IMG/VR virus record: IMGVR_UViG_2751185970_000003
Length of the DNA stretch: 17,229 nucleotides
Source: a virus
Taxonomy: Duplodnaviria > Heunggongvirae > Uroviricota > Caudoviricetes
Reading direction: 5' to 3' (one strand)
Shown here: positions 1 to 17,229 of the stretch, in pieces
How positions within the stretch are numbered: position 1 is the stretch's first letter
Layout of the letters: each line of letters starts with the position of its first letter
Program-made: the position numbers and the translations under genes
Notes under the pieces: generated by a model
The model's database searches: none
Told to the model about the DNA's origin: nothing
Seen by the model: only the letters and a program-made list of their open reading frames with translations

Positions 1-238
1 CATCAATGGTCTTTACAAAGCGGAGGTAATACACCGTAAGAGCTGGAAAAACCGTGCAGAAGTGGAACTGGCCACACTCACGTGGGTGGACTGGTATAAT
101 AATCGACGATTGCTGGAAAGGCTGGGCCACATCCCTCCGGCAGAAGCAGAAAAAGCTTATTATGCTTCCATCGGAAACGATGATCTGGCAGCCTGAGTTC
201 ACAGATAAAACACTCTCCAGGAAACCCGGGGCGGTTCA
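1..238 (+). mobile_element. IS629-like (IS3 family) insertion sequence, right-hand end; element continues upstream of the window
   Basis: The terminal 42 bp (197..238) read on the minus strand are TGAACCGCCCCGGGTTTCCTGGAGAGTGTTTTATCTGTGAAC, which matches the IS629/IS1203 inverted repeat as I remember it, with the TG...CA ends typical of IS3-family elements. The transposase reading frame stops at 194..196, immediately before this repeat. Confidence 0.75.
2..196 (+). CDS. IS3-family transposase OrfB, C-terminal fragment (5' end outside the window)
   Basis: Frame 2 translates to INGLYKAEVIHRKSWKNRAEVELATLTWVDWYNNRRLLERLGHIPPAEAEKAYYASIGNDDLAA followed by TGA at 194..196, a typical IS3-group integrase C-terminus. 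Confidence 0.8.
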   Translation: MNGLYKAEVIHRKSWKNRAEVELATLTWVDWYNNRRLLERLGHIPPAEAEKAYYASIGNDDLAA

Positions 239-3857: not shown

Positions 3858-4388
3858 TTAATCGCCTGGATAAATGGTAATAACTTCACCGTCATAAGTT
3901 GCCGCCGCTGCGAAAATATCCCCCGGAATTTCCTGAATGATATTCAGCCCTGTCATGTGGCGGCTGACCGGGCGGGCATCAGCAATCAACCGCTCCATTT
4001 CCAGATACATTTCCTCCGTCACGCCACTGTCCAGCGTGCCGACTTCAACGGTAAATGTTCCCGGTTCTCCGCCGAACTCCCACCACTCAGACACGCGAAT
4101 GAGGTATCCCAGCGGCTCAATGGCCCGGCGCAGTGCGCTGATGGTCCCTTTGTGTCGGTGTATCAGCCATGCATCACGAATAACCTGTCGCTTTGTCTCT
4201 TCCGGCCAGTTGCGATCCCAGCGGTCAACGGAAAACGCCCAGGCGAGATAAGGCAGCAGATGCACCGGGCAGGTGTCCGGCGACCACAGCGTGTTGAGGT
4301 CTACCGGAATGTCTGTAATGCGTGTTCCGACGGCTTCGGCACAACGCATGAAATTGCTGGCTGATGGTGGTAACAACGAATTACTCAT
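3858..4388 (-). CDS. I: Baseplate assembly protein gpI
   Basis: 176 aa from the ATG at 4388 (MSNSLLPPSASNF...WAFSVDRWD...GEVITIYPGD), with a GAAGGTGG ribosome-binding site 5 nt upstream. The ORF-track start at 4421 is an upstream extension overlapping J. Confidence 0.88.
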   Translation of the reverse strand: MSNSLLPPSASNFMRCAEAVGTRITDIPVDLNTLWSPDTCPVHLLPYLAWAFSVDRWDRNWPEETKRQVIRDAWLIHRHKGTISALRRAIEPLGYLIRVSEWWEFGGEPGTFTVEVGTLDSGVTEEMYLEMERLIADARPVSRHMTGLNIIQEIPGDIFAAAATYDGEVITIYPGD

Positions 4389-5276
4389 TGCGTCCACCTT
4401 CGCTGATGGTGAATGACTCACAGCGCGCCGCCTGTATGTCGCTGATGGCCATATTCTGTGTGGGTTCGATTATCTCCACGCGTTGCACACCGTGCACATG
4501 CAGTGCGGCAGCAATGGCGGACAACGCCACGTCCTGACCGATAAGCCCCTGCTCAGCCAGCCACTTCCTGAACGACGATTCAGCCGCGGCCAGAATAGGT
4601 TCGGATTCCGGGCCGGGGTAAAAGTACAGTTTTGCATTCAGCCGCCATGTCACGATTCTGGCACTCTGTACGGTCAGGCGGTCGCCACCGGGCGGGTATC
4701 CTCTGCATTCAGAACGGCGCGAACGGTATTAAGCAACGCCTCCGTTGCTGTGCCGTCGCCCTCAGTGGACAGGATGGAAACCGTCACGTTGGCCGGAGAC
4801 GGGCTGATGGCCCGCGCATCGCGTACCAGACCGCTGGCGCTGCGTGCAAAATACTCGTATGCACCTGACGGGCCAGCAACACTCAGACCGTCATATGCCC
4901 GTTGCGCCCGTAGTCTCAGCGAGGTGTCACTTTCCATCACTGCATCGGTGGTATCCGTTGCCGGAGTGATAACCAGGCGCTTTGTGTTCATATTGCCCGC
5001 GAGGTTGTCCAGGTCTGTCCCGGCGCTGTGGCTTAGCATGCAGGCGCGTGCACCCTCATTGACCCGCTGGCGTAACAGCATTTCACGAAACGACATGGTT
5101 TGAGCGATAACGTTAAGGGGTTCCGATTCCAGCTCCAGCGCGGCGGAAACGGCTTCACGCTGTTCGGCGGGATAGGACGCAATCATCATGGCCTTTGTGT
5201 CAGCCAGAATTGCCTCAAAGTCAGGCTCCGCGATGATGGCGGGTTCCGGTAACTGTGAAAGGTCAACGGCAGGCAT
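4381..5276 (-). pseudogene. J: Baseplate assembly protein gpJ, split by a 1-bp deletion (frameshift near 4683)
   Basis: Two ORFs (4674..5276 and 4381..4653) together cover a P2 gpJ-like protein (MPAVDLSQLPEPAIIAE...TRPVA then, in another frame, GDRLTVQSARIVTWRLNAKLYFYPGPESEP...). The minus strand reads gtggcgaccgcctga where gtggcgGaccgcctg would restore the frame. Confidence 0.7.
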
Positions 5277-8234: not shown

Positions 8235-8554
8235 TCGTCCTTCTCCTTCACCCTGCGATTAAAGGCCGCAATAACCTTGTCGCGTGCTTTCTCTGCACCC
8301 ATAAAACCGATTGATGCGCCGATAAACGTCACGGCATCTTCAGGAAACCCGAAGAAGCGCAACGACCCGGCCACGGCCATGGCAAGAACGCCGCACGCCA
8401 GCGATCCCGTTACGGTCTGAACCAGTGTTCGTCCGTCATAAAGGCTCATCAGCGCGGAAATGCTGACCGCCGCGCCTACTGCATACACCGTTGGCAGGTG
8501 GTCAAAGAGCCACGCAATAACCTGCTCTGTGATCCCTGTTTGAATGGTGCTCAC
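8231..8554 (-). CDS. Holin (three predicted transmembrane segments, charged C-terminus)
   Basis: About 107 aa from the GTG at 8554, with a GGGGGAG ribosome-binding site 6 nt upstream. Hydrophobic segments TVYAVGAAVSISALMSL, VTGSLACGVLAMAVAGSL and AVTFIGASIGFMGA are followed by a KR-rich tail. It sits immediately upstream of the endolysin with an ATGA overlap. Confidence 0.7.
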   Translation of the reverse strand: MSTIQTGITEQVIAWLFDHLPTVYAVGAAVSISALMSLYDGRTLVQTVTGSLACGVLAMAVAGSLRFFGFPEDAVTFIGASIGFMGAEKARDKVIAAFNRRVKEKDE

Positions 8555-8556
8555 TG

Positions 8557-8757
8557 CTACTCCCCCCACAACTGAATCATTTCTCGTTTCTTCTTCTCCG
8601 GCTCCGGCATCTCCACTTCCTGCCCGGCGTCCAGAAATACCTGCTGACAGAGTCCGGGGTTGGCATCCAGCACCTTTTCGGTGACGCCCTGCGTCGTGCC
8701 GTAGTACCGGAAACAGAGCGAATCCACGGTGTCGCCTTCCAGTGCCTTCACTTTCAT
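8557..8757 (-). CDS. X: Tail protein gpX
   Basis: 66 aa from the ATG at 8757 (MKVKALEGDTVDSLCFRYYGTTQGVTEKVLDANPGL...LWGE), resembling P2 gpX (MKTFALQGDTLDAICVRYYG...). It overlaps the L stop by 1 nt (TGATG). Confidence 0.88.
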   Translation of the reverse strand: MKVKALEGDTVDSLCFRYYGTTQGVTEKVLDANPGLCQQVFLDAGQEVEMPEPEKKKREMIQLWGE

Positions 8758-9251
8758 CAGCACAACTCCGCAAAGATTCGCGGGCGGCACAGAATGTCAG
8801 AGATGGCCCAGCTCACATCACGCCACAAATCCGATGTCTGTATATCCAGAGCGTCTGCCCGGCGGTCGCCCTTGTCCGTAGTGTCTGCATCACGATAACG
8901 CTCCAGAATCAGGGCGCGCGTGGCGGTATAAACAGCATTGCGCCAGTGCCAGAGATTGACGCTTTCTCCGTTAATTACGGGTGCCGGAACATCGGCCAGC
9001 GTCTGATGGCCAGCTGCCTGCTGTTCCTGCTGCCATGCTTCCAGCTCGCGGGTAACGTGTGCCACAGCCCCGGTGGCAGTATGCAGCAGGCGGGAGGTGG
9101 TCACGCGCCCCGGCAGTCGTACCGCCAGACGCAGCTCGCGCAGCACAATATCCGGCCAGAATGCACCCGCTGAAATGCGGGTATCGCCATCATCGGTATC
9201 GGTGATGTCGTCCTCTGCGGGTCCGGGTTCAGTTCTGGCAACTATAGTCAT
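8757..9251 (-). CDS. L: Head completion / stabilisation protein gpL
   Basis: 164 aa from the ATG at 9251, with an AGGAG ribosome-binding site 9 nt upstream. Its position between M and X and its size fit P2 gpL. Confidence 0.8.
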   Translation of the reverse strand: MTIVARTEPGPAEDDITDTDDGDTRISAGAFWPDIVLRELRLAVRLPGRVTTSRLLHTATGAVAHVTRELEAWQQEQQAAGHQTLADVPAPVINGESVNLWHWRNAVYTATRALILERYRDADTTDKGDRRADALDIQTSDLWRDVSWAISDILCRPRIFAELC

Positions 9252-9354
9252 GGGGTTCACTCCTGAAAAAAAATCGGGCGGTGGGTGCGCGGTGTAAACG
9301 GTCACGGAGTCAAACTGGAACACCGCGCACGCCGCCCGCTGACGGGGTCAGTCG

Positions 9355-10155
9355 TTAACCGCGCTTCGCCTTCTGCGTCGCGGTGGTTTTTCGTGTTGCA
9401 GGCTTCCGCGTTGTCTTTTTACTTTTGCTGCTTTCGTCCTGCGCCTGCTGTGCGCTGGCGTCTTCTGGTTCGGCTGCGGAATCGGCTTTTTTCAGGGCGC
9501 GGGAAAGGGTTGCAATCTCGCGTTTCACACCTGCGTTCGGGTTCAGGTGCATTGCTTCGCGCAGCAGCTTCAGTGACAGGGCCATGCTGTCCGCATCACT
9601 CAGGCCACGGCGGGCAAAGGCGCACGCTTTGCATAATTTGGCGCGCACTTCGTCCGGCATGTCCTGGTCGGTGACAATCTCCCGGAGGGTGTCCAGTGGT
9701 TCGATAAAGGCGGACAAATCCGCGTCGGCATCCGTCCCGGCCTGCGTCAGTACCGGATTACAGATTTCTTCGGTCAGTACCGTGGCAGCAGTACGGCCAA
9801 AGTTATCCGGCATGATGAGGTTGTGACGGACTACATACGCGCCGATACGCAGCGCAAGCGGAAGATCGCCACAGTCAATCGCCCACACCATCAGCGTGGC
9901 AATCACTTCATCCTGCTGCCCGCCGTCAGCCTCCAGCGTTCCCTCAATCCAGCCGGAAAAATCCGGCAACAACTCTTTTTTGATGGCGGCTTTCGCGCTT
10001 CTGGCCTGTACGCCCTTAAGCCGGGCCTGTGCCAGACGCAGACGATACAGCACCTCTTCATGCGCGGTACGCGCGGCGTGGTCCACGCCTTCATTCGCCC
10101 GGCCTGCGCGCTGTGCCATCACGTTCTGCCAGTGTTGTTGTGCAGGAGTAATCAT
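9355..10155 (-). CDS. M: Terminase endonuclease (small) subunit gpM
   Basis: 266 aa, with a GGAGAG ribosome-binding site upstream of the ATG at 10155. Its position after the capsid gene and its basic C-terminal tail (KKTTRKPATRKTTATQKAKRG) fit P2 gpM. Confidence 0.85.
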   Translation of the reverse strand: MITPAQQHWQNVMAQRAGRANEGVDHAARTAHEEVLYRLRLAQARLKGVQARSAKAAIKKELLPDFSGWIEGTLEADGGQQDEVIATLMVWAIDCGDLPLALRIGAYVVRHNLIMPDNFGRTAATVLTEEICNPVLTQAGTDADADLSAFIEPLDTLREIVTDQDMPDEVRAKLCKACAFARRGLSDADSMALSLKLLREAMHLNPNAGVKREIATLSRALKKADSAAEPEDASAQQAQDESSKSKKTTRKPATRKTTATQKAKRG

Positions 10156-10172
10156 TTTTGCTCTCCGTTACA

Positions 10173-10191
10173 GGCGGGCATGATGCCCGCC
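10173..10191 (-). other. Perfect 19-bp palindrome / stem-loop between capsid gene N and terminase gene M
   Basis: GGCGGGCAT-g-ATGCCCGCC has 9-bp arms. It lies between the N stop (10201) and the M ribosome-binding site and is a candidate attenuator, RNA processing or stability element. Confidence 0.5.
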
Positions 10192-10200
10192 GTGAGTTGA

Positions 10201-11252
10201 TTAGCTGTCGGCGAACTTCAGGCCAGTAACCATCGCGCACTTGCCATAGTCTTCAACGACATAAGCGTCATTGATGGACTGGTAGGTGGCGATGCGGTTG
10301 TATTCCGGCTCGTCTTTCATCAGGCGACGCATTGAACCTTTCTGCCAGTAAATCGACAGGTTGTTGAACGAGGTGATCAGCATCGTTGCATCCGGGAAGA
10401 ACGGCGCAAGGAACACGCCCAGCCCGCCAATGGTGCGCGATGACAGGATGAGCTGCCCGGCGAGTAATTCCGCATTGGGATTCTGGCCGCTGATGCTGTT
10501 CAGCACGGGCAGACGCAGCGAGTTAAACAGGTTGCGCCCCATAATCACCACGAGGTCGTCAGCTTCCTTGTGCCATTCATCCAGCAGGGATGAACGCGCG
10601 TCCTGTACCAGTGCATCAGCGTTCGCATACTTACCCGCGTGCGCCACGGTGTTGTCCATGTTGCGGGAGGTCAGCGTCACGTCATTCATAACGCGTTCGC
10701 TGGCGTCGGTTCTGATGTGCTCCAGCCAGCCCACGTTAACGTCCTGAAGCAGCTTGTTGGTGCTGAAGTTGGACTCATCCGCGTGAGACGTGCCGTTGAA
10801 ACCGATCATGATGCGGTCAAGCGCCACCTGTCGGGCAATCTGTGCGCTGATGCGGGACTGAAAATCAGGGTGTGCCGACCAGGCATCAAGCTGCGGATAC
10901 GAAATAAACGTGTCGTAGTTCACCTGTTCACACTGATATTTGCGGTTTTTCAGATCAACCACGTTATTCGGGTTACGGCGTTTTGTGCCGTCATAACTGG
11001 TATTCGTGCGCGCAATCGGTCCTGTGGTATCCAGGAGGATTTTTTCGCCTTTCTGGTCGGTCACGCCGATCACGTTATTTTTTTCGTAAATTCGGTACTT
11101 TCCTTTGAGGCGTTTTCAAAACGCTGCTGCACCGCGGGTTCCACGGTAAATCGCGACACCAGTGCAGATACCGGGATATTATTAAGCGACACCTGCTGCG
11201 CCATATAGCAACCCAGCTTGTTGCGGGTAATATCTGACATCACCAGATTCAT
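10201..11252 (-). pseudogene. N: Major capsid protein gpN, interrupted by a 1-bp frameshift in a homopolymer (T7 at 11078..11084)
   Basis: The ATG at 11252 has an AAGGAG ribosome-binding site 9 nt upstream. The first 60 codons (...FTVEPAVQQRFENASKESTEFTKK) end at a stop at 11070; the rest (...NVIGVTDQKGEKILLDTTG...NLSIYWQKG...YVVEDYGKCAMV) is in the -1 frame. One extra T/A in the run would give a continuous ~350-aa P2 gpN-like protein. Confidence 0.75.
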
Positions 11253-11275
11253 AAAAAATTTGCTCCTTTGTCTAA

Positions 11276-12112
11276 TCAGAAGTCGGCCAGCTGGTCGGAG
11301 GCTGCGCCCGTTGCGGTGAAGCGGTTCTGCGGATCGCCGTCCTGCGTGCGCAGTTTTTCCTTCAGTGCTGCCAGCTCTGTGGTCAGTGACGTAATTTTCT
11401 GGCGGTCCTGCTGATGGCGGGTTTCCAGCACATTAAAACGGTCGATAATGTCGGCCTGTGACGTTGCGACGCCTTCCACCGCTTCCTGAATACGGGAAAA
11501 ACTGGCGTCATCCGCTTTGCGGCCACGGCCAATAATCCCCATTACGCGGTTAAACCACTGGGTGCCTTCTTCCTGGCGTTGTTCTGCCATTTCGATGATT
11601 TCAGACTCGATGGCTTCGGAGATAAGCGGCGCTTCACCCTGGATACTGTTAAACGTCATCACCGCCTGACGTTGCTGTGCCGTGAATTTCAGGCGCTCAG
11701 TGCCCAGGCTTGCCGGGGTGTCGGTCATCGCCAGCCCGACCAGATAGGCGCGCCCGTTAACGGAGAACTGCGGGTGCAGTTCGATACTGGAATAGATTTT
11801 CTTGCCGTCCGCAACAAGCTGCTTCATGCGCTCGGTCGGTTCGATTTCTGCATACAGCGCAGTACGTCCGGCCAGCGGACCTTCCGTAATCTCTTCCGTA
11901 CTCAGTGCGGTGACATCGCCCATTGCGGAAAATTCGCTTGACGGGCATGGCGAGAGATAGTGCTCAACGTTCACGCGGGCAGCGTAAACATCCGGGTTGA
12001 AGTTCTCGGCGGCTTCACGCAGATGCACCGGACTGATTTCACGGCCATCAACAGTTGATCCGGAGACAGCCACGCGAAACTTTTTGCGGGATGTCTTTTT
12101 TTCATTAGCCAT
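11276..12112 (-). CDS. O: Capsid scaffolding protein gpO
   Basis: 278 aa from the ATG at 12112 (MANEKKTSRKKFRVAVSGSTVDGREISPVHL...YLVGLAMTDTPASLGTE...), resembling P2 gpO (FRIGVEGDTCDGRVIS..., CYLVGLAVTDDPASLGTE). The ORF-track start at 12145 is an upstream extension. Confidence 0.88.
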   Translation of the reverse strand: MANEKKTSRKKFRVAVSGSTVDGREISPVHLREAAENFNPDVYAARVNVEHYLSPCPSSEFSAMGDVTALSTEEITEGPLAGRTALYAEIEPTERMKQLVADGKKIYSSIELHPQFSVNGRAYLVGLAMTDTPASLGTERLKFTAQQRQAVMTFNSIQGEAPLISEAIESEIIEMAEQRQEEGTQWFNRVMGIIGRGRKADDASFSRIQEAVEGVATSQADIIDRFNVLETRHQQDRQKITSLTTELAALKEKLRTQDGDPQNRFTATGAASDQLADF

Positions 12113-12266: not shown

Positions 12267-14018
12267 ATGATTCAGGACGCTTTTGTGCGCCAGCGTGCGC
12301 GGCAACTTTACTGGCAGGGTTATCCGCCCGCAGAAATATCACGTCTGATGGGAATAAACCCGAACACGATTTATGCGTGGAAAAAACGTGACCAGTGGGA
12401 TGAAACGCCACCCGGGCAGCGTGTCACGCAGTCCATCGATGCGCGCCTCATCCAGCTTACTGAAAAACAGAATAAAACAGGCGGTGACTTTAAGGAAATA
12501 GACCTGCTGACCCGGCAGCTTAAAAAGCTGCATGATGGCCAGCCGGATGTGATGGCCGCAGGAAAGAAAGGCCGGGCGAAAAAACTCAAAAATCATTTCA
12601 CGCCGGAACAGATTGCCGCACTGCGGGAAAAAATCATCAGCAGGCTGGAGTGGCATCAGCGGGGCTGGTTTGACTCCCTGACCCTTTGCAGGGAAGCCGG
12701 GATACGTAACAGGATGATCCTGAAATCCCGACAGATTGGGGCGACCTGGTATTTTGCACAGGAAGCACTGCTGATGGCGCTGCGTGACGATGTGGCGCAA
12801 CCTTACCAGCGTAACCAGATTTTTTTGTCTGCGTCGCGTCGTCAGGCGTTCCAGTTTAAAAGCATTATTCAGAAGGCCGCGGCTGAAGTTGATGTGGAGC
12901 TGAAAGGGGGCGATAAAATCATCCTCTCCAACGGCGCAGAGCTGCATTTTCTCGGCACTTCTGCTGCGTCGGCACAGTCCTATACGGGCAATTTTTATTT
13001 TGATGAATTTTTCTGGGTCAGTCGCTTTGCTGAACTGCGCAAGGTGGCTGGCGCTATGGCAACCCTCAGCGGACTGCGGCGCACCTACTTCTCCACGCCA
13101 TCCACCGAAACGCACGAGGCATACGCCTACTGGAACGGCGACCGCTGGAACGAGAAAAAGGCCTCGCATAAACGCCAGCGTTTTTCTGTGGACTGGAAAA
13201 CGCTGCATAACGGGCTTATCTGCCCTGACCGGACGTGGCGGCAAATTGTCACGCTGGAAGATGTGGTTAATCACGGCTGGAAACACACCGATATCGACGA
13301 AATTCGTGATGAAAACACCGAAGACGAGTTCCTCAATCTCTATATGTGTGAGTTTGTCCGCGAAGGGGAATCGGCATTTAACCTGAATATCCTGATTGGC
13401 TGCGGCGTTGACGGATACGACGACTGGAAAGACTGGAAACCTTTTGCTCCCCGCCCGATGGGGAATCGTCCGGTATGGATTGGGTATGACGCAAACGGCA
13501 GCAGTGGCAACGGCGACAGCGGCGCTGTGTCCGTGGTGGTTCCTCCGTCTGTTCCTGGTGGCCGTTTTCGAACGGTGGAGACGCGACGCGTTCAGGGGCT
13601 GGAGTTTGAAGAACAGGCCAGAGTCATTGAAGAGTTCACGTGTCGCTACAACGTGGAACACATCGGCATTGATGTGACGGGCGGGAACGGGGAGGCTGTT
13701 TATCAGATAGTGAAACGGTTTTTCCCTGCCGCTATTCCGTACACCTTCACGCTGTCATCAAAACGGTCGCTGGTACTGAAAATGCTGCAAATAATGCGTG
13801 CCGGGCGGTGGGAATACGATCGCGCCGAACGCGAGCTGGTCGCGGCCTTTAACGCCGTGCGTAAGGTGAAAACACCGGGCGGCTTTATCACTTACGAAAC
13901 GGACCGAGCGAGGGGGATCAGCCACGGCGACCTTGCGTGGGCAACCATGCTTGCTGTCATTAACGAACCGATTGGCGGCGAAGGAGAAAACGAGCGTTTC
14001 ACGGTTATGGAGTTCTGA
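12267..14018 (+). CDS. P: Terminase large subunit (ATPase) gpP
   Basis: 583 aa, with a GGGGGAG ribosome-binding site. The N-terminal MIQDAFVRQRARQLYWQGY...ISRLMGINPNTIYAWKKRDQW region and the overall size match P2 gpP. It overlaps the Q start by 1 nt (TGATG). Confidence 0.93.
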   Translation: MIQDAFVRQRARQLYWQGYPPAEISRLMGINPNTIYAWKKRDQWDETPPGQRVTQSIDARLIQLTEKQNKTGGDFKEIDLLTRQLKKLHDGQPDVMAAGKKGRAKKLKNHFTPEQIAALREKIISRLEWHQRGWFDSLTLCREAGIRNRMILKSRQIGATWYFAQEALLMALRDDVAQPYQRNQIFLSASRRQAFQFKSIIQKAAAEVDVELKGGDKIILSNGAELHFLGTSAASAQSYTGNFYFDEFFWVSRFAELRKVAGAMATLSGLRRTYFSTPSTETHEAYAYWNGDRWNEKKASHKRQRFSVDWKTLHNGLICPDRTWRQIVTLEDVVNHGWKHTDIDEIRDENTEDEFLNLYMCEFVREGESAFNLNILIGCGVDGYDDWKDWKPFAPRPMGNRPVWIGYDANGSSGNGDSGAVSVVVPPSVPGGRFRTVETRRVQGLEFEEQARVIEEFTCRYNVEHIGIDVTGGNGEAVYQIVKRFFPAAIPYTFTLSSKRSLVLKMLQIMRAGRWEYDRAERELVAAFNAVRKVKTPGGFITYETDRARGISHGDLAWATMLAVINEPIGGEGENERFTVMEF

Positions 14019-15064
14019 TGAGCAGAAAAAATAAAAAAGTGCGCATGAGTTCACGCATTGATCTCGCTGATGCGCTCAGGAAAGAATCATCGCTCAGTGC
14101 ATTCACATTTGATGGTCCTTATCGCCTGACCGGGCATGACCTGCTGGACAATATGTACTGTGCTGATAACGGGCGGTGGTATGAAACCCCGGTGGACTGG
14201 TACGGTCTGGCAAGAGCTGCCCGGCAAACGTCCTGGCATCAGTCTGCGCTTTATTTTAAGCGCAATGTATTGCTCGGTTGCTACATCCCGCACCCGCTGC
14301 TTTCCCGGCAGGATTTCTCGGCGCTGGCGCTGGACTGGTTTGTGTTCGGTAACGCATTCCTTGAGCTTCGAAGCAATATGCTCGGCGAACCGCTTAAATT
14401 ACGGCACGCCCTGGCGAAATACATGCGACGCGGAAGCGATCTTGAATCATGGAGGTATGTGCAGGATGGCAAGGATGCGTTTCAGTTTCGCCCAGGCAAA
14501 GTGTGTCACCTGATGAATCCTGACATTAACCAGGAAATCTACGGCATGCCGGAATATCTCGGCGCATTACTCTCGGCCAGCCTGTCTCATTCGGCGGACA
14601 TGTTCAGAAAACTGTATTACGACAACGGATCCCACGCCGGGTGCATCATCTACATCGGTGCCGCGCAGGTAAACCGCGAAAGCATGGACTCCCTGAAAGA
14701 AACGCTACAGGGTGCGCGTGGTGGTGGTGCGTTTAAAAACGTGCTCATTCATGCGCCCAACGGGGGCAAAGAGGGGGTGCAAATTTTGCCGTTCCAGCAG
14801 ATCACCGCAAAGGATGAGTTCATGAATGTTAAGGCGGCATCCCGTGATGATGTGCTGGCTGCGCACCGCGTTCCGCCGCAACTGATGGGGGCGATGCCGG
14901 GTGAAAAAAGTGCGTTTGGTGATGTGGAGAAGGCCGCGCGGGTTTACGCAATTAACGAGCTGATGCCCGTCATGGAGGCCATGAAGCACATCAATGACTG
15001 GCTTGGCGAAGAGGTGATCCGCTTTAACCCTTACGCACTGTTAGACATCCAGCCCACATCCTGA
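14018..15064 (+). CDS. Q: Portal (capsid vertex) protein gpQ
   Basis: 348 aa, MSRKNKKVRMSSRIDLADALRKES...; the size and position downstream of P fit P2 gpQ. Confidence 0.92.
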   Translation: MSRKNKKVRMSSRIDLADALRKESSLSAFTFDGPYRLTGHDLLDNMYCADNGRWYETPVDWYGLARAARQTSWHQSALYFKRNVLLGCYIPHPLLSRQDFSALALDWFVFGNAFLELRSNMLGEPLKLRHALAKYMRRGSDLESWRYVQDGKDAFQFRPGKVCHLMNPDINQEIYGMPEYLGALLSASLSHSADMFRKLYYDNGSHAGCIIYIGAAQVNRESMDSLKETLQGARGGGAFKNVLIHAPNGGKEGVQILPFQQITAKDEFMNVKAASRDDVLAAHRVPPQLMGAMPGEKSAFGDVEKAARVYAINELMPVMEAMKHINDWLGEEVIRFNPYALLDIQPTS

Positions 15065-15091
15065 CGCGCTTCGCTTGTCTGCTGCTTCGCC

Positions 15092-15114
15092 GGGGCATAA
15101 AAAATTTATGCCCC
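15092..15114 (+). terminator. Hairpin immediately downstream of Q
   Basis: GGGGCATAAA-aaa-TTTATGCCCC has a 10-bp stem and begins 28 nt after the Q stop. There is no strong U-tract, so it may act as an RNA stability element or weak terminator. Confidence 0.45.
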
Positions 15115-15283
15115 GACTCTCCAGCTCCTGTATCAGTCAGATAATTTCACGACGCCTTCCAGTTTATCGCCACCATCGACGGTCAGACTCTTACGCAATC
15201 CCACCGCGTTGACTGCATGTTCTCGCCGCCTCAGTGCGATTTTGACGGCCTTACCTTTCACCCCATCAAATCAGAATCCCTCA

Positions 15284-15314
15284 CGTATTTTTCACGCTCA
15301 GCGTGAGAAATACG
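15284..15314. other. 31-bp near-perfect palindrome in the cos-proximal non-coding region
   Basis: CGTATTTTTCACGCT-c-AGCGTGAGAAATACG has 15-bp arms with a single mismatch; it is a candidate protein-binding or packaging element. Confidence 0.6.
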
Positions 15315-15393
15315 GCCATTCTGTCGTGTCGCTGCGACATCGTTAAGGGAACGCTATTTACCCCCTGAAACGCGGGCTGTTCCCCCGTCACCT

Positions 15394-15418
15394 GCGCGCA
15401 GAAAAAGCGCGTTTTTTT
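15394..15418 (+). terminator. Rho-independent terminator (plus strand)
   Basis: GCGCGC-agaaaaa-GCGCG followed by TTTTTTT at 15412..15418. Confidence 0.6.
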
Positions 15419-15488
15419 GTGCACGCACGGATCCTTGACGGATCCAGCCGCCACGCGGGCTGGAAGGGCAAAAATTCGTTCAAAAAAA

Positions 15489-15515
15489 TTGTGCAAATTT
15501 GTGCACTATTGTGCA
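15489..15515. repeat. Three direct TTGTGCA repeats with exact 10-bp phasing
   Basis: aTTGTGCAaa tTTGTGCAct aTTGTGCAgc at 15489, 15499 and 15509, preceded by an A-tract. The one-helical-turn spacing suggests an array of protein-binding sites. Confidence 0.6.
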
Positions 15516-15517
15516 GC

Positions 15518-15541
15518 AGGGCGATGTGCGATTATCGCCCT
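15518..15541 (-). terminator. Stem-loop 14 nt downstream of the Ea22-like gene stop (possible terminator)
   Basis: AGGGCGAT-gtgcgatt-ATCGCCCT has an 8-bp stem. No immediate U-tract follows on the minus strand. Confidence 0.3.
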
Positions 15542-15554
15542 GGTTTGAGGGGGA

Positions 15555-16145
15555 TCAGGTGTTATTTTTATCTGTCGTCAGTGGGCTAAACCATCCACAA
15601 TTTACATCGCATGACTGATGCGTTCTGTCCTCGTGTTTCTCCTGCCACAATGCTTTTCCGCCAGCCTTTATGATGGCTCTTTCAACATCCCGCTCGTATC
15701 GCAAGGGCTGAAATACGTCATTAATGAAATATTCGCTTATGTCCGGAAGCGATACTGCAAAATTATTTGTTTGTTGCGCCGTCCTGCTATGCAGCAAAGC
15801 GGCATGCTTTAATGCGTCCTGTGCTTTCTGGAATTTAAGTGCATAGTCAGTGGCGATTTTTTCCAGTTCAGCGATTCGGTTGTCTTTGGTTTCCAGCCAA
15901 TCAAGTAGCGCCAATACTTCAGGATCCCCGACATCCAACACTGTTACGCGTGATTTTTCATAATGTTCGTCAGCAAGAGTTCGGCCAATTTTGAAATCTC
16001 CATCATCACCATAACCGGAGCAGGCATAAACAACCTGTGCTCCAGATATTCGCTGAATTGACATTTCCTCGCCGCAAATAGGGCATTTCGGTACTGGCAC
16101 AGGTGAATAACGTTCACGTAATGCCTGATAGTTGATTTCGCTCAT
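15555..16145 (-). CDS. Ead/Ea22-like family protein with an N-terminal zinc-ribbon (CPICGEEM...YACSGYG) and a central coiled-coil; function unknown
   Basis: 196 aa, with an AAGGAGA ribosome-binding site 8 nt upstream of the ATG. MSEINYQALRERY... and PEVLALLDWLETKDNRIAELEK resemble the Ea22-like proteins of enterobacterial prophages that I remember. The gene is visibly lower in GC than the flanking phage genes. Confidence 0.7.
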   Translation of the reverse strand: MSEINYQALRERYSPVPVPKCPICGEEMSIQRISGAQVVYACSGYGDDGDFKIGRTLADEHYEKSRVTVLDVGDPEVLALLDWLETKDNRIAELEKIATDYALKFQKAQDALKHAALLHSRTAQQTNNFAVSLPDISEYFINDVFQPLRYERDVERAIIKAGGKALWQEKHEDRTHQSCDVNCGWFSPLTTDKNNT

Positions 16146-16208
16146 TAAGTCGTTCTCCTTGTTTATGTTCTGAGGTGGAGAGCAGGGCGAACTCGCCCTG
16201 ATGTTGTG

Positions 16209-16520
16209 TTATTCAGGAAATAACGCCCGGATATTTCCGGCCATCTGACTGGTTATCTGTGCGGTTGATACTGGCTGTGATGCGGGGCGTTCTGTCCTGG
16301 TTTGTGTCACTGATAACGCTTCATCACCAGCCCATGCAGCCAGTCGATAAGCCTCTGCCGGATTCATTTTCAGAAGTGCCAGCCCGGCCAGAAAAGCCAC
16401 GCGTTGGCCGCTTTTGCGGGCTTCTGGTGTAAGGCTGTCCAGCCAGGCGCATGCTTCTCCTTCGTTCTTGACGGCGGTGGGCTTCAGATAGAAACTTATC
16501 CGTCTGGTTGGAGTCGTCAT
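16209..16520 (-). CDS. parR: ParR/StbB-like ribbon-helix-helix centromere-binding protein
   Basis: 103 aa from the ATG at 16520 (MTTPTRRISFYLKP...AWLDSLTPEARKSGQRVAFLAGLALL...), resembling R1 ParR (RRTIAFKLNP...LDSIPQGERSRLNRAALTAGLALY). It starts 4 nt after the parM stop, the same gene order as R1 parM-parR. Confidence 0.7.
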   Translation of the reverse strand: MTTPTRRISFYLKPTAVKNEGEACAWLDSLTPEARKSGQRVAFLAGLALLKMNPAEAYRLAAWAGDEALSVTQTRTERPASQPVSTAQITSQMAGNIRALFPE

Positions 16521-16524
16521 TGGT

Positions 16525-17130
16525 TTACTCCTTGTCCATTGCGTACAGCCCATTAACCAGAGCAAACTGTGGCACCCCGTCCGCGATGAAAGTCGCATTA
16601 ACTCCGCAGGCTTCGCGGATAGCGGGTGCCACAATCTCCGCCCCTCCACCGACAACCATCACCCGCCCGTAACCCGAAAAAACCGCCAGCGCGCGGATCA
16701 CGCGTTGTTTCAGTGTTTCTTCCTTTTCACGAATTACCGCCATCAGGCTGGCGTAATGCGCGTCATTGTGGATGTGCTGGCGCAGCCAGGCTTCATCATG
16801 GCGATGTTCGATAATGGTATTGGCGATGTGGTGACTGGTGCGCATACCGTTAGTGGCCATCACCGACAGTACGGCATCGGCCATCAGAGAAACGCCCACG
16901 TGTGGATCGCAAAACACCTGGCTGATACCTGCCAGTTGCCCCTGAACCTTTGCCACATCCAGCGTGGTTCCGCCCAAATCCACAATCAGCAGGGATTCAA
17001 ACGGACTCATGTCAGCCAGTGCCTTAAAGCCAGCCGGAATGGATTCAGGCATAACCTGTACGTTACGGATAGTGAATGCTTCGCCGTTCTGGTACTCCAC
17101 CGGGCGCATGACGTTCGCTTTTTTGCGGTT
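16525..17130 (-). pseudogene. parM: ParM/StbA-like actin-type partition ATPase, 5'-truncated (about 115 N-terminal residues missing) by an IS insertion
   Basis: The translation ...NRKKANVMRPVEYQNGEAFTIRNVQVMPESIPAGFKAL...LLIVDLGGTTLDVAKV...VFSGYGRVMVVGGGAEIVAPAI...FALVNGLYAMDKE aligns with R1 ParM from about residue 120 onward (phosphate-2 and adenosine motifs present). The coding sequence abuts the IS terminus at 17131 and the only in-frame start is a TTG inside the IS end. Confidence 0.75.
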
Positions 17131-17229
17131 TGAAGTGGTCAACAAAAACTGGCCACCGAGTTAGAGTTTTTCCAGTATCGATTTTCCGATTCGTTTGGGG
17201 GGAACCCACCGTTATATTCGTGCGGTCTT
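17131..17229. mobile_element. Terminus of an IS3-family-like insertion sequence (IS911-like end), continuing beyond the window
   Basis: The sequence begins TGAAGTGGTCAACAAAAACTGGCCACC, which resembles the IS911-type terminal repeat (TGAAGTGG...TGGCCACC) as I recall it, exactly where ParM homology stops. No ORF is included in the 99 bp available. Confidence 0.5.

Follow-up and report, generated by a model that had tools for sequence, protein, structure and literature searches.

The window, i.e. the whole 17,229-bp stretch of DNA analysed here, holds a P2-like late gene module and, past the portal gene Q, three co-oriented open reading frames (ORFs) on the minus strand: an Ead/Ea22-like gene (ead), the partition gene parR and a truncated parM. 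The features on which the following account is based are:

1-238, plus strand: 3' end of IS629, which forms the left boundary of the remnant and cuts into the tail-fibre region
12267-14018: terminase gene P of the P2-like late module
14018-15064, plus strand: portal gene Q (Pfam Phage_portal), the conserved boundary of the gpA-gpQ hotspot
15065-15554: non-coding gap between Q and ead, the expected location of cos
15555-16145, minus strand: Ead/Ea22-like gene (Pfam Ead_Ea22, 2.1e-32) in the variable cargo slot between parR and cos
16183-16200: GC-rich hairpin CAGGGCG-AACT-CGCCCTG in the 63-bp spacer between parR and ead, seen in the sequence and in a scan for terminator-like structures
16209-16520, minus strand: intact parR (103 codons plus stop; 312 nt)
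16525-17130, minus strand: truncated parM (codons 119-319 plus stop of a 319-codon gene for an actin-like ATPase)
17131-17229, minus strand: terminal 99 bp of IS911, the orfB-proximal IRR end beginning TGAAGTGGTCAAC, with the transposase reading towards parM

Up to position 17130 the DNA of the window is 98–99.9% identical to intact prophages. The portal gene matches that of an E. coli prophage over its full length (99.7% identity), and Q and P are followed by genes O, N, M and L, lysis genes and tail genes. Two of the late genes are broken: the major capsid gene N (10204-11252) is frameshifted at ~11076 and the baseplate gene J (4384-5276) at ~4683–4692, and therefore the prophage cannot make virions. 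Together with IS629 as a second insertion sequence (IS), these frameshifts mark the whole prophage as a remnant. The other late genes that were checked are full length, with the exception of the tail-fibre gene H, for which comparison with the reference gave a divergent (67% identical) full-length match and a separate alternative C-terminal segment. At the left boundary, positions 1-238 are 98.3% identical to annotated IS629 OrfB and 100% identical to the IS copy in a closely related Shigella flexneri contig described below. This IS629 end is adjoined by tail-fibre assembly genes and an alternative C-terminal segment of the tail fibre (239-2156). The block is inverted relative to a S. boydii record that is also treated below, an orientation consistent with a tail-fibre segment capable of inversion, an IS-mediated rearrangement or both.

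Both partition genes were assigned by profile searches. The parR ORF (16209-16523, minus strand) matches the Pfam family Plasmid_stab_B (ParR/StbB, PF10784) over profile positions 1–71 of 72 (E=3.2e-23) and phrog_2515 'partition protein' in PHROGs (1.7e-57), and its product is identical at 103 of 103 residues to ParR from an intact E. coli prophage. This small protein of the matching family is encoded directly 3' of parM; the parR start codon lies 4 nt past the parM stop and is served by a strong AAGGAG ribosome-binding site. A phmmer search of ParR against PDB sequences returned no match at E≤1, so that a claim of a ribbon-helix-helix (RHH) protein would have no structural anchor. The parM ORF (16525-17145, minus strand) matches the whole profile of the ParM C-terminal domain in Pfam (E=2.3e-69) and phrog_691 'partition protein' (7e-90). 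Of the N-terminal domain StbA_N it matches only profile positions 119–157 of 158, and hence the N-terminal part of the protein is missing. Accordingly, tblastn aligned the product to residues 119–319 (201 aa, 63%) of an intact 319-aa E. coli prophage ParM with 99% identity.

It is this intact allele, rather than the fragment itself, that provides full-length similarity to a characterised ParM: the 319-aa protein of an intact prophage (L002) aligns with plasmid R1 ParM (1MWK) at E=1.2e-92, residues 2–316 to 2–318. The Pfam and PHROGs matches and this alignment bear out the naming of the two genes as ParM and ParR in the sequence-only reading, i.e. the interpretation of this DNA that preceded our searches and that profile searches could have overturned. 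The family assignment is unambiguous. Intact ParM carries the phosphate-1 motif DDGSTNIK at residues 6–13, which is present in R1 ParM as well and gone from the window copy; beginning at residue 119, the latter also lacks the full actin/Hsp70-type fold with both nucleotide-binding halves. The window parM thus is a ParM homologue, but a fragment. With the loss of its phosphate-1 ATP-binding motif and of everything upstream, the window copy is non-functional, as had been concluded from the sequence alone: the ATPase fragment is predicted to be incapable of binding ATP normally, and the partition module is dead.

The agent of the truncation is identified by the right-hand end of the window. From the terminal TGAAGTGGTCAAC onwards, positions 17131-17229 are identical at 98 of 99 nt to the annotated IS911 of phage Sf6, and the terminal inverted repeat TGAAGTGG... 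together with this identity to reference IS911 places the element in the IS3 family. Homology to intact loci ends at 17130 and IS911 starts exactly at 17131, so that the extent of the partition gene remnant, 16209-17130, is exact. The earlier view that parM has lost its N-terminus to an IS terminus at 17131 is thereby confirmed, and the IS can be named as the IRR end of IS911.

What lies beyond this end was followed in the nearest relatives. When the truncated ParM product was looked up by exact sequence, four assemblies were found, the longest match being a 91-kb contig of S. flexneri CCH060, a serotype 6 strain (GCA_000267985.1; PMC4374849, PMC6397287). This contig, whose identity to the window is 99.65% over 10.7 kb, contains a complete 1246-bp IS911 at the same parM junction, with orfAB reading towards parM. 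From the chromosomal side, it carries DAHP synthase, hemP, selO and a btuCED-like cluster, then a 45-aa integrase fragment and IS629; after IS629 follow a 122-bp early-gene piece (corresponding to 15301-15422 of L002), an IS fragment and the complete IS911, and past IS911 the truncated parM, parR, ead, Q and further late genes. Relative to an intact prophage, ~5.2 kb have been replaced by IS material in CCH060, and the lost DNA comprises the 5' 354 nt of parM, the repeats upstream of it, gene A and more early genes. The 3 bp on either side of IS911 (GTT and AAC) form no direct repeat. With ~5.2 kb missing and no 3-bp direct repeat present, the junction in CCH060 is the product of a deletion or rearrangement and not of a simple IS911 insertion. 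For the window, which itself ends 99 bp into IS911, we infer the deletion at parM from this 99.65% identical relative.

The same junction occurs in NZ_CP049283.1, a linear, IS-bounded record of 26.7 kb deposited as 'plasmid unnamed' of S. boydii 600657, which probably is an unplaced chromosomal contig. This record is a piece of the same defective prophage, has no counterpart of window positions 8260-11631 and carries IS1 copies. The sequence-only reading had proposed to look for the 5' half of parM beyond the IS. When this was done in the relatives, no 5' half was found past IS911: in CCH060 the far side consists of the IS fragment followed by the early-gene fragment, in keeping with the ~5.2-kb deletion, and in the S. 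boydii record IS629 cuts IS911 at position 542, where the record ends. The replicon context, which had likewise been recommended for checking, is that of a chromosomal contig in the nearest relative, the one record labelled as plasmid being the linear 26.7-kb S. boydii sequence. As the same parM::IS911 junction lies beside btuCED on the 91-kb S. flexneri contig, the proposal that a prophage fragment had been captured on a plasmid is contradicted.

The undamaged state of parR raises the question of whether the remnant retains a function. Transcribed by read-through from IS911, the orphan parR could be imagined to act in trans on incoming P88-like phages, whose parMR/parC it would repress or titrate in an incompatibility-like manner. 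The gene is 100% intact, its ribosome-binding site is strong, and orfAB of the IS911 in the CCH060 contig does read in the required direction. However, a scan of 15000-17229 detected no sigma-70-like promoter, and consequently no hybrid promoter reading outward from IS911 could be proposed; the neighbouring genes are decaying; and in a remnant that is still young, a gene of 312 nt can be expected to be intact by chance. Such residual activity in trans thus appears very improbable. At most, parR may be expressed via IS911 read-through, which is unlikely to matter.

The arrangement from which the window has decayed is common among prophages. Positions 15065-17130 are 99–99.9% identical to chromosomal prophages in many E. 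coli strains, whose intact gene order is int, C, cox, early genes, A (encoding the replication endonuclease), parM, parR, cargo, cos and Q-P-O-N-M-L. The order A-parM-parR-cargo-Q is also found in P88, Citrobacter phage Shae_phiSM, Escherichia phage Chuche, other E. coli prophages and a complete P88-like genome of 34.5 kb, and in functional relatives parMR lies directly downstream of gene A on the same strand. In the window, the Q side of this hotspot cassette is preserved, with Q, ead, parR and truncated parM in the expected order, while the nearest relative has lost the A side. Among complete E. coli genomes, parMR DNA is present in 1285 of 5426 (~24%), and a relative is encoded by 248 IMG/VR viral contigs. 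A parM ORF of 319 aa occurs in all 87 loci without an IS, among 91 related loci. In two IMG/VR contigs (L061 and L078) the tblastn match to ParM spans 1380 instead of 957 bp, and both contain the 319-codon parM ORF.

The content of the slot between parR and cos varies, with the Ead/Ea22-like gene in the window and a DUF3800 protein, a membrane protein or small hypothetical genes in other phages. Neither Ead/Ea22 nor ParR nor ParM matched a defence family in PADLOC, which leaves a reading of the cassette as a defence system unsupported. The record of Xuanwuvirus P884B11 is linearised at the equivalent of window position 15470/15471; the 19-nt cos consensus of P2/186 found no match in the window with up to three mismatches, and cos is placed only roughly, as its position is based on this linearisation point. 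ParR itself is variable: P88-like phages (loci L006–L093) have at least seven allelic types that are 50–85% identical, with a hypervariable linker at about residues 66–92. The N-terminal segment RRISFYLKP and the C-terminal tail NIxxFFPE are conserved in an alignment of seven types. Across the parR allelic types, the ParM protein is ~97–100% identical, with dN of up to 0.035. In many prophages of E. coli O157, the match to the window is restricted to parM and the first ~19 codons of parR.

Rousset et al. (2022; PMC9122126) have described a putative plasmid-partitioning cassette in the gpA-gpQ hotspot of P2-like phages, "around a fourth" of which carry it, and the feature as such is therefore already known. 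P88 is a mitomycin-inducible chromosomal prophage (PMC5285337), and the report on it makes no mention of partition genes; a literature search on ParM in P2-like prophages and on Xuanwuvirus yielded nothing specific. It had been pointed out from the sequence alone that parM and parR do not belong to canonical P2 and that they adjoin a P2-like late module (Q, P, O, N, M, L), and both statements are correct. The adjacency to the late and cos region had further been taken as a possible sign of capture at this locus. This does not follow, since the order A-parM-parR-cargo-cos-Q is native in Xuanwuvirus and hundreds of prophages. As the cassette is normal in one P2-like lineage of E. coli/Shigella prophages, it marks a decaying chromosomal prophage, not a plasmid capture. 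We thus interpret the locus, with a probability of roughly 0.88, as the right-hand end, now decayed, of a defective prophage of the P88-like type (Xuanwuvirus, P2 family) in a Shigella-type chromosome; the host chromosome would be of the type found in the S. boydii/S. flexneri serotype 6 lineage.

The relationship to plasmids was addressed with intact ParM as tblastn query against the 72,556 plasmid records of PLSDB. Only six records carry a ParM that is at least 95% identical, and those inspected among them are a chromosome-sized record of 1.4 Mb, the linear S. boydii contig and a complete phage genome. In the remaining matches (at least 4994 records) identity is below 60%, with 52% as the highest value among the matches listed, and no match falls between 60 and 95%. 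The GC content of parMR (54–55%) equals that of the late genes (54%), the downstream cargo gene ead being at 45%, and pairwise dN/dS is 0.06 for parM and 0.28 for parR. An identity of at most 52% to true plasmid ParM (among the matches listed), the phage-like GC content and the dN/dS of 0.06 argue for an old, native cassette. To judge from these comparisons, parMR is old, phage-adapted and kept by selection in functional phages.

These data also bear on a recent capture, in which plasmid parMR would have entered the prophage hotspot, or a prophage fragment would have moved onto a plasmid via IS rearrangement. IS elements do lie on both flanks of the remnant, and the related contig NZ_CP049283 is labelled as a plasmid. 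Against this, the listed matches include no plasmid ParM above 52% identity and intermediates of 60–95% are absent, the same gene order is found in functional phages and hundreds of prophages, the GC content matches that of the phage, and the same junction is present in a chromosomal contig; a recent event of either kind is scarcely credible. The suggestion that plasmid DNA was captured into the hotspot may therefore stand for an ancient event and fails for a recent one: capture would hold only as the founding event of the whole phage lineage.

A different role for the cassette was implied by the suggestion that the element is, or was, a phage-plasmid. P88-like phages would then lysogenise as plasmids and use ParMR for their maintenance, and the window would stem from a once-episomal element. 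An episomal state has been speculated upon by Rousset et al. (2022; PMC9122126), and the purifying selection on the cassette indicates that it does something. Moreover, a complete P88-like genome from an E. coli isolate from a cat has been deposited as a circular 'plasmid' of 34,461 bp (pZ1323PEC0009-2, NZ_CP148288.1); it contains integrase, cox, A, parMR and late genes and may represent either a replicative form that was excised or a genuinely episomal prophage. If the former, this sole circular record would be a replicative form that was assembled apart from the chromosome. The genomic distribution speaks for integration: of 1426 parMR places in complete E. coli genomes, 1424 are chromosomal and two are on plasmids, an integrase is encoded by every element inspected, including the circular one, and integration was seen in those inspected in chromosomes. 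A chromosomal location also applies to the closest relative of the window, with the shared junction on the Shigella contig, and an extrachromosomal replicon is not what these data indicate. Obligate plasmid lysogeny is argued against by the predominance of integrated copies and the presence of the integrase, whereas the single circular 34.5-kb record keeps an episomal state among the options. On balance, we consider it unlikely that the window derives from a phage-plasmid, and the suggestion finds little support.

A site for ParR was sought upstream of intact parM, where the distance from the gene A stop codon is only 76 bp in intact relatives. Two repeats of 33–38 nt, each containing CGGGAYT-N4-AATCCCG, are located in this region at a distance of 73 bp:

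L002 10453-10490 and 10526-10563: repeat pair straddling the gene A stop codon

The final ~20 codons of gene A contain one repeat, and the gap between A and parM contains the other. Exactly two such palindromic repeats occur per whole phage genome, with none expected by chance, and they are kept in 57 distinct upstream variants. In one of these variants relatedness begins only at the first repeat, the 3' end of gene A before it being otherwise unrelated, and the module boundary is placed there accordingly. A 146-nt segment bearing the repeats was found in exactly the 14 phage records that have parMR, out of 50,697. We regard the pair as a candidate parC/operator and maybe a minimal centromere, as far as can be judged from its sequence and position; alternatively, the two repeats may be no more than an operator or an RNA structure. 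When hairpin covariation was considered, the observed variants were not at symmetric positions, and for this reason no claim of an RNA structure is made.

Across the 17,229 bp of the window the repeat motif is absent, and ParR-site repeats upstream of parM are accordingly not found in it, as IS911 replaces everything before codon 119. It had been proposed that a parC-like repeat array is not visible because the IS replaced the region upstream of parM. The removal of the upstream region by the IS holds true; an array of the expected kind, however, is not part of the ancestral arrangement, as no R1-type iteron array was found upstream of parM in intact relatives with their 76-bp gap.

Taken together, these features allow a mechanism to be sketched. 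In functional members, a type II (ParMRC-like) cassette would be composed of the two palindromic repeats, parM and parR, placed between A and cos. By analogy with R1 ParMRC and with the AlpAC system described below, ParR would bind the palindromic repeats, with filaments of ParM pushing or positioning phage DNA outside the chromosome while it is replicating or before it has integrated. This might take place during replication or establishment, as in AlpAC, or in an occasional episomal state as speculated by Rousset et al. In the window, an IS911-associated rearrangement would have taken parM codons 1–118, the candidate cis site, gene A and other early genes, leaving behind the ATPase fragment and the orphan parR. 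That ParMR of P88-like phages is a working, streamlined type II system, with the two repeats as centromere, which positions or segregates extrachromosomal genomes, is put forward here tentatively, as a possibility somewhat on the doubtful side. If true, one in four E. coli P2-like prophages would make facultative use of an actin-like cytoskeleton. The role of an R1-type actin-like partition system in P2-like phages that integrate is a question at the level of the family that has already been flagged, and the strong purifying selection on parM, the strictly linked repeat pair and the multiple ParR allelic types make it easy to test. The window, for its part, documents IS-driven prophage decay in a Shigella-type genome and cautions against reading a plasmid origin from 'plasmid' gene names.

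Of the known systems, the cassette of P88 and other Xuanwuvirus members is the closest to that in the window: the genes are the same (91–100% DNA identity), as are the position between A and Q, the orientation and the presence of variable cargo past parR. In contrast to it, the window copy lacks parM codons 1–118, the upstream repeats and gene A, and the prophage around it is defective, genes N and J being frameshifted. With ParMRC (StbA/StbB) of plasmids R1 and R100 the phage system shares a full-length ParM alignment with conserved nucleotide-binding motifs, the Pfam family of ParR and the order parM-parR. It differs in that the phage ParM is only ~46–52% identical to plasmid ParMs (among the matches listed) and that the cassette resides in the chromosome as part of an integrating phage. 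The upstream regions are dissimilar too. Plasmid homologues have ~340–410 bp of upstream non-coding DNA with T-rich repeats at a spacing of ~10 bp, and R1 parC consists of 10 iterons, whereas the phages have the 76-bp gap and two palindromic sites, one of them within gene A. A functional parallel is offered by AlpAC/alpS of prophage CGP3 in Corynebacterium glutamicum, which comprises an actin-like ATPase and a DNA-binding adaptor (PMC4446434, PMC5539076) and has been reported to support transport and replication of viral DNA, not plasmid inheritance (PMC4446434). The host phylum and phage type are unrelated to those considered here, and the parallel drawn is a functional one. Nevertheless, AlpAC likewise represents an ATPase and adaptor encoded by an integrated prophage and may thus serve as a plausible functional model for the ParMR of P88-like phages.
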